Shown one piece after another: positions 14,848-17,690 of a DNA stretch of 55,485 bases. The stretch lies in the NCBI GenBank assembly GCA_043819555.1, contig JBDREQ010000007.1:1-55485 (forward strand), read 5' to 3'. The stretch is from Candidatus Zixiibacteriota bacterium. GTDB taxonomy: Bacteria; Zixibacteria; MSB-5A5; GN15; JAAZOE01. The stretch's first letter is position 1. Each line of letters begins with the position of its first letter. A program made the position numbers and the translations under genes. The notes beneath the pieces were generated by a model, which did not search any database, had not been told where the DNA came from, and saw nothing but the letters and a program-made list of their open reading frames with translations.

Positions 14848-15858
14848 ATGGCAAAAAAAGGACACGGTATAGCTCTATTTTCGGGCGGTTTGGATTCAGC
14901 TCTTGCCATTTTGATGGTAATGCGCCAAAATGTCGAAGTGACAGCATTATCATTCATGAATCATTTCGGCTGCGACATCACCGATAAATCTTCCTGCTCA
15001 AAGGATCCTTATCCCATCGCGGAAAAATTCGGTTTCACAGTCAAAATGGTTCATCTCGGGCATCAATTCGTTGATATAGTACGAAATCCCAAATATGGTC
15101 ACGGCAGGAATATGAATCCCTGTATTGATTGCCGCATCCTGATGCTCAGGGAAGCCAAAACTTTCATGGAATTGGTCGGCGCCGATTTTGTCTTCACCGG
15201 TGAAGTTGTCGGGCAGCGGCCGATGTCGCAATATAAACCTCAATTGGCATTGATTCTGCGGGAATCAGGTCTGGGAGATAAATTGGTGCGTCCGCTGTCA
15301 GCCAAATTACTTCCCGAAACCTTGCCCGAACGTATGGGGATTTTAGACCGTAAGCAATTGGGCGATATAAACGGTCGTTCCCGCAAGGCGCAAATGGAAC
15401 TTGCCGACAAATACGGCCTGGAAAACTACCCCGGCTCGGCAGCAGGCTGCCTCTTAACCGATGCCGGTTATTCCAAACGGCTTCGCGATTACTTTTCCCA
15501 TCAGGAACAGGTCGATTTTAATGAGCTGAATCTACTCCGCATTGGACGCCATTTCAGAATAGATGAAAACACGAAAATTATAGTTGGGCGCGACGAAAAA
15601 GAGAATGACAAGATCGAGAAACTCAGAAAACCGGACGAATGGCTGTTTGAGGCCCGCGATACCGGTTCTCCAATTACACTCGTCAAAGGAACTATCTCTG
15701 ATGAGATAATAAGCACCGCGGCGGCCATAACGGCTCGTTACTGCCGCGCCCGGAATGAAAAAACAGTTAATATTTCTTTCTGGACTAGCGAAGGAAATTT
15801 AAGAACAATTAATGCCCAACCGACATCGGATGAATATCTGAAAAAAATCCGTCTTTAA
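14848..15858 (+). CDS. PP-loop tRNA thiouridylase-like protein (ThiI/MnmA-related) with C-terminal DUF814/NFACT-R-like domain
   Basis: SGGLDS, NPCIDC, TGEVVGQRPMSQ, GCLLTD and IIVGRDEKEN motifs. Confidence 0.75.
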   Translation: MAKKGHGIALFSGGLDSALAILMVMRQNVEVTALSFMNHFGCDITDKSSCSKDPYPIAEKFGFTVKMVHLGHQFVDIVRNPKYGHGRNMNPCIDCRILMLREAKTFMELVGADFVFTGEVVGQRPMSQYKPQLALILRESGLGDKLVRPLSAKLLPETLPERMGILDRKQLGDINGRSRKAQMELADKYGLENYPGSAAGCLLTDAGYSKRLRDYFSHQEQVDFNELNLLRIGRHFRIDENTKIIVGRDEKENDKIEKLRKPDEWLFEARDTGSPITLVKGTISDEIISTAAAITARYCRARNEKTVNISFWTSEGNLRTINAQPTSDEYLKKIRL

Positions 15859-15886
15859 AAAAAACCGGATTCACATCCGGTTTTTT
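15857..15886. terminator. Bidirectional intrinsic terminator
   Basis: A8-CCGGAT-TCAC-ATCCGG-T6. Confidence 0.8.
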
Positions 15887-16012
15887 CAATCGTAATTTAT
15901 AACAATTATGAATTATCATTGTCGAGCCCCTATCCGAAAATGACAGGGGCCCTCCTCTCCAGTGCCCGATACGAACGGCCATCAGCTTAGCCGTACTCTC
16001 CCCGTATCAGAC
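15857..16012 (-). ncRNA. Candidate structured small RNA of unknown family
   Basis: TTGCAC-N16-TATATT promoter (16046-16019), three stems that close fully with G-U pairs only on the minus strand, and a downstream terminator. Confidence 0.5.
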
Positions 16013-16182
16013 ATATTTAATATATACAAAGATTGAAAATGTGCAAATTCTTTTTAAAAATTTCTTGCTAAATTCGGAAGGGATATGAGCCCAAAACCAA
16101 AGAAAAATATTAATTATCGCATATCCTGCGATATTATCGGTCTTCGATCAAAATGGGATAAGTATGACTCGCATACTTTGCG

Positions 16183-16213
16183 AAAAAAGAGCCCCATGCA
16201 TAACATGGGGCTC
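16183..16213 (-). terminator. Intrinsic terminator of the cohesin gene
   Basis: GAGCCCCATG/CATGGGGCTC stem followed by T6 on the minus strand. Confidence 0.8.
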
Positions 16214-16267: not shown

Positions 16268-17089
16268 TTACTTGGTTAGAACCATTTTCTTTGTTTCAGA
16301 GTAATCATTAATCTTGGCCCGGTAAAAATAGACGCCACTGGCAACTTTGGAACCATTTTCATCAGTTCCATCCCAGAGGAATTCATAAGTACCGGCTTCA
16401 CGATAACCACTACTAAGTTCATTGACTTGCTGGCCGAGAATATTGAAAACCGACACATTTAATTCACCGGCAAACGGCGTCGACAAACTGAAACTTGTAC
16501 TCGGATTAAATGGGTTCGGCCAGTTTTGACTGAGGCCATAGGCCGTCGGGATCGCGTTACCGCCACCTGTCAAAGACAATGTTCCAAATGACAACTCCGG
16601 ATTAATCTGTCCCAATTCAGGTCTTCCGTTTGTATAATCGTTGTAATAGAAAGTCAAAGAGTGATTCGGGTCTTCAGATTCAAACGGTTTGAGCTCCACC
16701 GTTTCCACTCCGGCGTCAAGCTTAAAGTGCAATTCAGCAATTACGCCCTGGCCGGTTGGCAAATCAGGAGCTTCATTGGTAACCATTGAAACCAATCCAA
16801 TGATAACCTGATTCTTTTCGTTGTCAATCATGGCGTGCTTGAATTCAAATTTATCAACGCGGTCGGTAAAGACCACCTTTTCAAGCATAGCGCCTTCTGA
16901 AAATTCCAGCGGGATATCAAGGGCCGCCAATTCCTGTGTATTACCAACTTCCAAAGGCACTACCAGGATATTGCCTTCCATTACGATCGCTTTAGCCGCC
17001 GCCAATTTATCGACATTGGCCGACAATGCTATCGCCGGAATCAGAAACATGACAAGGACGGATGCGACGAGCAGGTTACGCTTCATCAT
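16268..17089 (-). CDS. Secreted cohesin-like protein with C-terminal T9SS type-A / FlgD-Ig sorting domain
   Basis: Signal peptide; cohesin-like VVPLEVGN..ELAALDIPLEF...GVIAELHF; SQNWPNPFNPST...WDGTD..G..VASGVYFYR...KKMVLTK. Confidence 0.75.
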   Translation of the reverse strand: MMKRNLLVASVLVMFLIPAIALSANVDKLAAAKAIVMEGNILVVPLEVGNTQELAALDIPLEFSEGAMLEKVVFTDRVDKFEFKHAMIDNEKNQVIIGLVSMVTNEAPDLPTGQGVIAELHFKLDAGVETVELKPFESEDPNHSLTFYYNDYTNGRPELGQINPELSFGTLSLTGGGNAIPTAYGLSQNWPNPFNPSTSFSLSTPFAGELNVSVFNILGQQVNELSSGYREAGTYEFLWDGTDENGSKVASGVYFYRAKINDYSETKKMVLTK

Positions 17090-17610
17090 ACATCACCCCC
17101 TCCATATTAAGGGTTTGATTTACGGCTATATGTGTCACTAATTACCTCCTTGTACGCAATACAGCCATTTCCAATTAAAAACTATACTCTCTGACGGATT
17201 AGTGACATGAGGGGTGGGATACCTCTCCTTGTATCCAATATAATAATCTACACAATTCTTGTCAACTGTTTTTTCCCTCACCCCAGGAAGAACTTAGGCG
17301 CGAATCCTCAAAGCATATATGAAAATCCAAAAGGTACTTTCTCAAACGACCTGGGAATATCAGCAAATCCTCCTCACACTCATTATAATTGTTTTAGCAT
17401 GCGATAGTTCCAATATTTTTCAAAAAAAATGAACAGCGGTCTAATAATTGACTGTTCACTTTAATATTAATTTATTACCTCATGTTATTCACACCTTTGC
17501 AATCGTATGAAAATTTTTTGGCTTTTTGCCATAAAATTATAAATATTCACGCTCATTGCTATAAATGGAGAATAAAACAGCTCACTTTCAAAACCCAGTT
17601 TTCTTTACAC

Positions 17611-17639
17611 TTGACTAACGTTATACGCAACCGTACCTT
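17611..17639 (+). promoter_or_regulatory. Sigma70 promoter of the OPT gene
   Basis: TTGACT-N17-TACCTT. Confidence 0.55.
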
Positions 17640-17690
17640 GCGATATTGAAAAAATTAGCTTCATGGTTTTCCATTAGATAAGGAGGCGCT

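Follow-up and report, generated by a model that had tools for sequence, protein, structure and literature searches.

The window analysed here, a 55,485-nucleotide (nt) stretch of contig JBDREQ010000007.1 from the Candidatus Zixiibacteriota bacterium assembly GCA_043819555.1, contains between two protein-coding genes a compact RNA element that reads on the minus strand from position 16012 to about 15924 or 15857, with a predicted length of ~93-156 nt. Upstream of it, on the same strand, lies a gene for a 273-residue protein with a C-terminal sorting domain of the type IX secretion system (T9SS), hereafter T9SS-273, and downstream lies a convergent gene encoding a PP-loop ATPase fused to an NFACT-R RNA-binding domain (Table 1). 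The locus is predicted from sequence to be, very probably, a stand-alone, trans-acting small RNA (sRNA) gene, which supports an original prediction that had placed a stand-alone structured RNA gene at this site. It represents an undescribed RNA family that has no counterpart in Rfam 15 and is, among the genomes sampled, restricted to one bacterial order.

A single-copy RNA with a conserved fold

The element forms a GC-rich island (52-57% GC at 15930-16019) in an AT-rich spacer (22-35% in the flanks), as the original prediction had it. The minimum free energy (MFE) structure of the minus strand from 16012 to 15857 reaches -66.9 kcal/mol, compared with -39.4 +/- 3.8 kcal/mol for 200 dinucleotide shuffles (z = -7.29, none of the 200 being as good), and it contains the predicted helices P1 and P2, the linker and the 11-base-pair (bp) hairpin, P3. 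The plus strand folds to -44.6 kcal/mol only, and the resulting advantage of ~22 kcal/mol for the minus strand comes from strand-asymmetric G-U pairs; a hand count finds six of them in P1-P3 of the MFE structure rather than the five first reported, and they do favour the minus strand.

Homologues were found by searching with blastn for the core in genomes of the same GTDB family (f1) and were then cut out and aligned, which gave 13 sequences from ~10 genera in genomes whose flanking proteins are merely 50-66% identical. The P3 stem and the preceding GGAGAGGAG are invariant in the family, GGAGAGGAGGGCCCCU(G/A)UC and GAU(A/G)GGGGCUC are essentially so, and the sequences of P1 and P2 drift. RNAalifold returns P1, P2 and P3 from this alignment, and 96.1% of the cells of the consensus structure are paired. 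Covariation is strong in P1 and P2: both-sided, compensatory changes are seen in 13 of 28 pairs (6/10 in P1, 7/7 in P2 and 0/11 in P3), values that were reached in 0 of 500 column shuffles, while controls in which the 3' partners were slid by 1-3 columns gave 3-6 both-sided pairs. In P3, nine pairs are constant and two change on one side (U-A to U-G and G-U to A-U); these changes keep the pairing only on the minus strand, which fits an RNA of that strand. In the internal loop between P1 and P2, G12 is invariant and G11, G13 and A14 are almost so. The linker and the first bases of P3 together make up a 19-mer, GGAGAGGAGGGCCCCUGUC (15942-15960), that is invariant in 13/13 sequences, and this stretch is proposed as the putative business end of the RNA.

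The ends of the predicted transcript are less sharply placed. A search for sequencing runs that contain the stretch returned one DNA metagenome and no RNA run. Promoter geometry, taken alone, would put the 5' end at ~16012, and the RNA would end either after P3 (~93 nt) or at a terminator shared with the convergent gene (~156 nt). A U-run of at least five U follows P3 in six of the 13 family members, in which P3 looks like the terminator itself, and is not found in the window. There, P3 is followed by an A/U-rich spacer whose conservation with the sister species (same-genus genome G001) is limited to the first 13 nt, and then by a hairpin that resembles a terminator working in both directions, for the RNA and for the convergent gene with its end at 15858. 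Most relatives have a comparable second hairpin with a U-run 50-70 nt past P3. Of the two terminators originally claimed, the one at 16183-16213 was listed by a terminator scan of the region and the one at 15886-15857 was not, so that the status of the latter rests on the fold.

No match at gathering score was found with Rfam 15 in the 55-kb window or in the loci of 11 relatives, in line with the initial impression that the RNA belongs to no known family. The best match in E-value mode, STnc50, reached 29.1 bits, where the gathering score is 55, and aligned on the terminator hairpin only; the other sub-threshold matches were terminator-driven as well, to enterobacterial sRNA models, and the same mode returned nothing relevant for the version of the RNA found in other families (see below). 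In the 3.35-Mb genome, blastn finds one full-length copy, the element itself, the remaining 30 matches having E >= 0.048 and not exceeding 33 nt, and a covariance model, R1, has exactly one match in each of 14/14 genomes of family f1. A dispersed repeat (REP/MITE-like), which had been named as what would overturn the prediction, is ruled out by this single full-length copy and by the one match per genome. Elsewhere in the order R1 finds 0/5 genomes of family f2, 0/99 of f3 and 1/33 of f4 (a weak, partial match), and outside the order 0/121 sampled genomes, which represent the 15 further families of the class. An open reading frame for 57 residues (15809-15982) that starts inside the element was considered and rejected, since a hand reading of the sister species shows that its frame shifts and stops early.

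Table 1. Features of the RNA locus and of the two leaders discussed in the text (positions in the window unless a contig is named)
Feature	Position	Strand	Basis or remark
Distal enhancer-like palindrome TCGCA-N5-TGCGA	16169-16183	.	About -170 from the RNA 5' end
Proximal enhancer-like palindrome TCGCA-N5-TGCGA	16117-16131	.	52 bp from the distal palindrome
Sigma-70-like core promoter TTGCAC-N16-TATATT	16019-16046	-	Sequence; function inferred
P1 5' arm GUCUGAUACGG	16002-16012	-	MFE fold; predicted RNA 5' end ~16012
P1 helix, 11 bp	16012-16002 pairs with 15974-15964	-	MFE fold
Asymmetric internal loop GGAGAGU	15995-16001	-	MFE fold and alignment; mostly GGGAAAG in relatives
P2 hairpin ACGGCUA/UGGCCGU, 7 bp	15975-15994	-	MFE fold; sequence and loop variable
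P1 3' arm UCGUAUCGGGC	15964-15974	-	MFE fold, RNAalifold, covariation count
Linker ACUGGAGAGGA, unpaired, purine-rich	15953-15963	-	MFE and centroid structures
P3 hairpin GGGCCCCUGUC/GAUAGGGGCUC, 11 bp	15924-15952	-	Fold; stem invariant, loop variable (7-10 nt)
A/U-rich 3' spacer, 37 nt	15887-15923	-	In the RNA solely if transcription passes P3
Hairpin A6-CCGGAU-GUGA-AUCCGG-U8	15857-15886	-	Fold
Convergent gene	14848-15858	+	PP-loop ATPase fused to NFACT-R RNA-binding domain
Intrinsic terminator of T9SS-273	16183-16213	-	Terminator scan: 11 pairs, 7 G-C, T-run
T9SS-273 (upstream gene)	16268-17089	-	273-residue protein with T9SS C-terminal sorting domain
T9SS-273 5' leader	17084-17265	-	Includes a TTGACA-N17-TATATT promoter
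Flagellin gene upstream region	Genome G000, contig C25, ~155980-156200		Sigma-28-like promoter TAAAGT-N14-GCCGATTT; leader ~190 nt with several GGA

A dedicated control region

The core promoter of the original prediction is present, 7 nt before the 5' arm of P1 (the scan lists an overlapping reading, TTTGCA-17-TATATT). Promoter-like sites are no more frequent in this region than in shuffles (2 found and 2.4 expected), which makes the hexamer motif alone weak evidence, and it gains weight from the sister species, which has TTGCGT-N16-TATATT at an equal distance. Where the earlier analysis saw a sigma-70-like promoter, the relatives show a sigma-54-type element: GGCAYR-N4-TTG(T/A) ends 12-14 nt before the RNA in 12/14 loci of family f1 (R1 loci) and in 36/36 parsed loci of a second covariance model, R2, that detects the RNA in other families (36 of 37 R2 loci could be parsed, one could not be anchored). 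The sigma-54 consensus is TGGCACG-N4-TTGCW, with which the -24/-12 element of the relatives agrees except for the last C, the -12 base being always T or A. The relaxed pattern was written after the data had been seen, and its chance occurrence is ~0.03 per 420-nt search space and locus by hand arithmetic. Among the R1 loci, only those of the window and its sister species lack the element, and the window still shows TCTTTG of the former -12 region. The promoters upstream of T9SS-273 orthologues are of the TTGACA/TATAAT housekeeping type, which, together with the match in the sister species, makes the promoter in the window plausible as a genus-specific replacement.

Further upstream, all 14 R1 loci carry one CGCA-N5-TGCG palindrome at -146 and another at -94 relative to the GG, with a spacing of 52 bp, and 35 of the 36 parsed R2 loci carry NRCA-N5-TGCG at -87 to -112 (about -100). 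Single palindromes occur at the chance rate genome-wide (32 seen, 28.6 expected); the pair at the RNA is the only one in the genome with a spacing of 30-80 bp. In the genus of the window the half-sites of both palindromes are kept and their spacers differ. The terminator scan lists the proximal palindrome (16115-16133) as terminator-like; it is followed by a mix of A and T without a T-run and makes more sense as a protein-binding site. Both rpoN and ~17 Sigma54_activat genes are present in the genome, none of the latter on this contig. On contig C39 of this genome (G000; 90433-90932), one sigma-54 activator gene is apparently split, with matches covering profile positions 1-122 and 120-167, the second of which has one in-frame TAG.

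In 48 of the 50 parsed loci the sigma-54 promoter and the enhancer-like sites point into the element, and this control module seems dedicated to this one RNA gene. As judged from these comparisons, the genus of the window has apparently swapped the sigma-54 core for a sigma-70-like promoter and retained the palindromes.

Gene neighbourhood

The gene order around the RNA is kept through the order: OPT transporter, T9SS-273, gap, convergent PP-loop ATPase/NFACT-R gene. T9SS-273 lies upstream of the RNA in 13/14 R1 and 32/37 R2 loci, and the convergent gene lies downstream in 11/14 and 30/37, respectively. The downstream gene in the window being convergent, and no same-strand gene following the RNA in any of the 14 family loci (four neighbour proteins tested), the element does not belong to the class of cis leaders or riboswitches, a point on which the original prediction proved right. 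On the other side, the intrinsic terminator of T9SS-273 insulates the RNA gene from its upstream neighbour, and a comparable hairpin follows the T9SS-273 orthologue in relatives.

T9SS-273 orthologues were located by searching with the N-terminal 175 residues; a profile search with an alignment of the full 273-residue protein returned almost only the generic T9SS sorting domain, in unrelated genomes of the FCB group. In one relative (genome G010, contig C23, 2985-4652) the T9SS-273 gene is present in two tandem copies upstream of the RNA. The intergenic region between the divergent T9SS-tail and OPT oligopeptide transporter genes (17090-17690) is unusually long (~600 bp). The convergent gene encodes an uncharacterised fusion that is widespread in the class; its N-terminus is ThiI/MnmA-like, with matches far under the NCBIfam cut-offs, and it is a candidate RNA-modifying enzyme.

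Variants in the other families of the order

The same gene slot is occupied in families f3 and f4 by a longer RNA (~125-160 nt) that is differently folded on a common plan. Its closing helix P1 has 8 bp with compensatory changes (16 sequences), and its inner domain, which makes the RNA a three-way junction, has two hairpins with apical loops, CCCGCAAC and UUGGCGGU, that do not vary; the linker, UGGUGAGGAGAGA in f3 and UAACAAGGAGAG in f4, is followed by a terminator with a U-run. The two loops are partly complementary (CCGC/GCGG), which suggests a loop-loop contact (e.g. loci L176:1503-1649, minus strand, and L172:1456-1600, plus strand). R2 matches 68/99 genomes of f3, 20/33 of f4, 1/5 of f2 and 0/13 of f1, with a single match in 85 of the 89 genomes hit, and none of the 121 genomes from outside the order. 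In family f2 the RNA takes a third form, in which a loop reads AGGCGGU and the linker is AUGGGGAGAGAGGGGGG. No Rfam family matches any of these versions.

All versions have P1, the GGAGAG of the linker and a G-rich 3' hairpin or terminator in common, GGAGAG being the only motif common to the versions of all four families. Since R1 and R2 are mutually exclusive by family and hit the same place, the f1 and f3/f4 RNAs are read as orthologues with a remodelled inner domain, which is a hairpin in the former and a three-way junction in the latter.

Possible modes of action

The RNA probably regulates other genes through its exposed purine-rich stretch. The single most likely mechanism, which is put forward tentatively from sequence features, is that it acts as a decoy for CsrA by means of an exposed GGA tract. 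The original prediction had already suggested that unpaired GGAGAG motifs could titrate an RNA-binding protein, an idea with which the GGAGAG common to all four families and the presence of CsrA agree. The plan common to the family is that of P1 around a variable inner domain, an unpaired linker with a GGAGAG resembling a Shine-Dalgarno (SD) sequence, a 3' hairpin or terminator and a dedicated control region, in which the CGCA-N5-TGCG palindromes would feed a sigma-54 promoter (replaced by the sigma-70-like core in the genus of the window). Under the decoy mechanism, the GGA tract of the linker and a second GGA, which lies 40-45 nt further upstream in the internal loop, would bind the translational repressor CsrA, and its capture would free mRNAs with look-alike sites, such as the leaders of flagellin and of the adjacent gene for a T9SS-sorted protein.

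CsrA is the favoured partner as the only one found of the three classical global partners of sRNAs, Hfq and ProQ having not been found in the 97%-complete genome. Its single gene sits between flgK- and flgL-like genes in the flagellar cluster, fliW is 2 kb away, a flagellin gene is also in the set, and CsrA occurs in 78/81 genomes of the order (68/68 of the good ones). The FliW-CsrA-flagellin set is thus complete in a T9SS-bearing lineage. The CsrA consensus from in vitro selection (SELEX) is RUACARGGAUGU, which the f4 linker UAACAAGGAGAG fits, and the motif ACAAGGAG occurs in f4 RNAs, in the flagellin leader and, order-wide, in the hairpin loop of the T9SS-273 leader. Flagellin leaders of the order (24 parsed from 30 loci) contain GGA as many as five times, among other places in a hairpin loop, GCAAGGAAG, and in the SD UUCAAGGAGGA. 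In the window, the T9SS-273 leader has ACAAGGAGAGG in or beside a GGAUAC/GUAUCC hairpin right at the expected start, GUACAAGGAGGU, which agrees with the SELEX consensus at 11/12 positions, the SD GGAGGGGGUGA and a conserved C-rich element, CCCACCCCUCA (17202-17218), able to base-pair with this SD. Upstream of T9SS-273 orthologues, a hairpin whose loop reads A(A/G)GGA is conserved across the order. This leader looks like one that may be CsrA-controlled, anti-SD-gated or both.

Two further links between the RNA and these genes were considered and dropped. The sequence UGGCGG, invariant in a loop of the f3/f4 RNA, is found twice in the flagellin leader of this genome, and the flagellin leaders of 23 other genomes mostly have GGCAGC there. 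As to SD mimicry of the neighbouring gene, the longest words common to linker and ribosome-binding site have only 6-7 nt (GGAGGG, GAGGAG; 10 nt in one genome) and are absent in f4, which does not exceed the overlap of any two SD-like strings.

Several observations weigh against the capture of CsrA. GGA is not enriched, with a mean of 4.0 per RNA (range 3-5) versus 3.66 in dinucleotide shuffles, and 0-4 of these, usually 3, are unpaired in the MFE structure; CsrB has ~18-22 and RsmY/Z have 5-8, and at best one CsrA dimer could bind each RNA here. CsrA being universal in the order, its co-occurrence with the RNA is uninformative, and with FliW a protein antagonist of CsrA is already there. The MFE structures of f3/f4 pair much of the purine tract with the U-tail of the terminator, so that it may not be free, and the window linker, CUGGAGAGGAGGG, fits ACARGGA less well than the f4 version does. 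Recognition of GGA does not account for the invariance of the full P3 stem in f1. Finally, enhancer palindromes at -118 and -170 make little sense with a sigma-70 promoter, which leaves the regulation of the copy in the window unexplained.

A possible, if somewhat unlikely, alternative is that the RNA is a base-pairing riboregulator whose purine-rich seed, UGGAGAGGAGGG, perhaps extended by opening into the 5' arm of P3, binds target mRNAs where they are rich in C and U, for example freeing anti-SD elements in long leaders in the anti-antisense mode of DsrA on rpoS. It has the layout of classical trans-acting sRNAs, with a regulated promoter, a body, an unpaired stretch by a terminator hairpin and, in relatives, a U-tail; the invariant 19-nt block would fit a surface that matches several targets, and one f3 linker, CGGUUGGUGAG, is complementary to the leader element CCCACCCCUCA at 10/11 positions by hand comparison. 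However, the genome has few exact or one-mismatch complements of the f1 seed, none of them in a leader, and a duplex scan of both strands gave a smooth distribution of energies, the best site (-28.4 kcal/mol) being antisense to an lgt-like coding sequence. The window linker pairs poorly with the C-rich element of its neighbour (3+2+3 bp with mismatches, by hand), for which RNAduplex places the best site elsewhere. Purine-rich seeds would also be unusual, most seeds being C/U-rich and aimed at SDs, and the failure to find Hfq and ProQ counts against pairing, although many bacteria do without them. Another idea, less probable and on the whole unlikely, has the RNA act as decoy or scaffold on something else than CsrA, which could be the 30S subunit or the 3' tail of 16S rRNA (the linker being a long SD mimic), C-rich sRNAs (as for the RNA sponge RosA of B. 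subtilis) or a lineage-specific protein that reads P3. In this genome 16S rRNA has CACCUCCUUUCU at its 3' end, and a comparison by hand gives 10 bp, two of them G-U, between GGAGAGGAGG and CCUCCUUUCU. In f3 and f4 this pairing shrinks to 5-6 bp (again by hand), only AGGAG/GGAGAG being common between the families, and a long pairing with 16S rRNA is therefore not conserved. The invariance of the P3 stem without covariation suggests sequence-specific recognition of the helix, and the junction of f3/f4 with its invariant loops UUGGCGGU and CCCGCAAC resembles a protein- or ligand-binding body rather than a seed carrier. The f1 version lacks the junction and both loops, however, which therefore cannot be the shared functional core, and no candidate RNA or protein partner was identified.

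Two other explanations were weighed. That the element acts locally, either as a conditional terminator that on read-through would yield an antisense RNA to the PP-loop/NFACT-R gene or as a substrate or guide RNA of the encoded enzyme, is very improbable. The enzyme carries an RNA-binding domain and its gene adjoins the RNA at the frequencies given above, and P3 lacks a U-run in the window, so that transcription may continue up to the shared terminator, where the gene has its stop codon. Yet enzyme matches (E <= 1e-40) occur in 12/15 families outside the order, in which R1 and R2 have no match; genus g19 has the RNA in 5/6 genomes (by the RNA model) and an enzyme match in 0/3, genus g2 has the RNA without an adjoining enzyme gene, and the body of the gene is separated from the RNA by the strong A6/U8 hairpin. 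On the basis of these distributions, a partnership of the RNA with the enzyme was rejected. It is more improbable still that there is no RNA gene at all and that the locus is a DNA-level site or the stacked terminators of two convergent genes. In favour of this, both P3 and the final hairpin form inverted repeats in the DNA, and the promoter motif alone does not exceed chance. Against this stand the G-U asymmetry with its 22 kcal/mol in favour of the minus strand, the compensatory changes that keep P1 and P2 paired while their sequences drift, the terminator that the upstream gene already has, and the sigma-54 promoter and enhancer sites positioned so as to point into the element.

Comparison with known systems

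In kind, the RNA is a regulated stand-alone bacterial sRNA whose nearest functional analogues are CrcZ, GlmY and the CsrA sponges, and it is a member of none of these groups. CrcZ/CrcY (Pseudomonas, Azotobacter) and GlmY (enterobacteria) are sRNAs driven by sigma-54 and enhancer-binding proteins that sequester a protein. They resemble the present RNA as stand-alone sRNAs with a -24/-12 promoter and upstream activator sites, and in the action proposed here, that of a decoy through repeated short purine-containing motifs. Unlike CrcZ and GlmY, the RNA described here has no Rfam model match, its host belongs to an order outside Proteobacteria that has a T9SS, no activator gene lies beside it in the window (none of the ~17 being on the contig), its palindrome is CGCA-N5-TGCG and not a CbrB or GlrR site, and the copy in the window lacks the sigma-54 core promoter. 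Excerpts of two publications describe CrcZ/CrcY and NrsZ as sigma-54-driven sRNAs (PMC6292655, PMC4253122).

With CsrB, CsrC and RsmX/RsmY/RsmZ of Gammaproteobacteria the RNA has in common unpaired GGA between hairpins, an end at a terminator and a host with CsrA, and mRNA leaders near it carry look-alike ACAAGGAG sites. It differs from them in having 3-5 GGA, a number not above that in shuffles (theirs ranges from 5 to ~22), no Rfam match, a sigma-54 enhancer module instead of GacA/UvrY, and a host with FliW. In C. jejuni and B. subtilis, according to excerpts of the relevant papers, the CsrA antagonist is FliW and sRNAs of the gammaproteobacterial type are not used (PMC4894983, PMC7829508, bioRxiv 10.1101/2020.07.02.184341).

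The Qrr sRNAs of Vibrio and CJnc230 of C. jejuni, to which the Rfam search revealed no homology, are like this RNA in being sigma-54-dependent trans-acting sRNAs of ~100 nt with an unpaired conserved region that precedes the terminator and with an upstream palindromic activator site. They use C/U-rich seeds (with Hfq in Vibrio), whereas the conserved strand here is purine-rich and Hfq was not found. The Qrr sRNAs depend on sigma-54 together with LuxO. CJnc230 is presented, in an excerpt of its description, as an RpoN-dependent flagellar sRNA (PMC11187230). As to the class of sigma-54-dependent sRNAs as a whole, the genome of the window has the activator sites, rpoN and activator genes, and the -24/-12 element that is missing from the window and its sister species is present in the other 12 loci of the family and in all those parsed in other families.

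Biological meaning

The widest reading of these data is that the RNA is the first CsrA-antagonist sRNA outside Proteobacteria, operating beside FliW in a flagellated, T9SS-bearing lineage in which a dedicated enhancer-binding protein and sigma-54 switch on a one-dimer decoy that frees the mRNAs of flagellin and T9SS cargo. This reading is unlikely as it stands, and if true, the genus of the window would show the module rewired to a sigma-70 promoter. Since FliW-type Csr systems are stated, in the excerpts cited above, to be controlled by FliW and not by sRNAs, a decoy of this kind would be new and would change the view of these systems as being without antagonist RNAs. The lineage appears to be without a described regulatory RNA, as a single full-text search on small RNA in Ignavibacteria gave no relevant result.

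Whatever its partner, the locus adds to the families of Rfam 15 a well-supported RNA family, with covariation, a single copy, a fixed slot and a conserved control region. It provides a module of sigma-54 promoter, enhancer sites and sRNA outside Proteobacteria that is seemingly dedicated to a single RNA gene, and what is read as one orthologous sRNA locus at which the families have come to differ in their inner fold and have all retained the closing helix, GGAGAG linker and terminator. In the genus of the window, it also offers what appears to be a natural swap of promoter class in which the enhancer sites have been retained.

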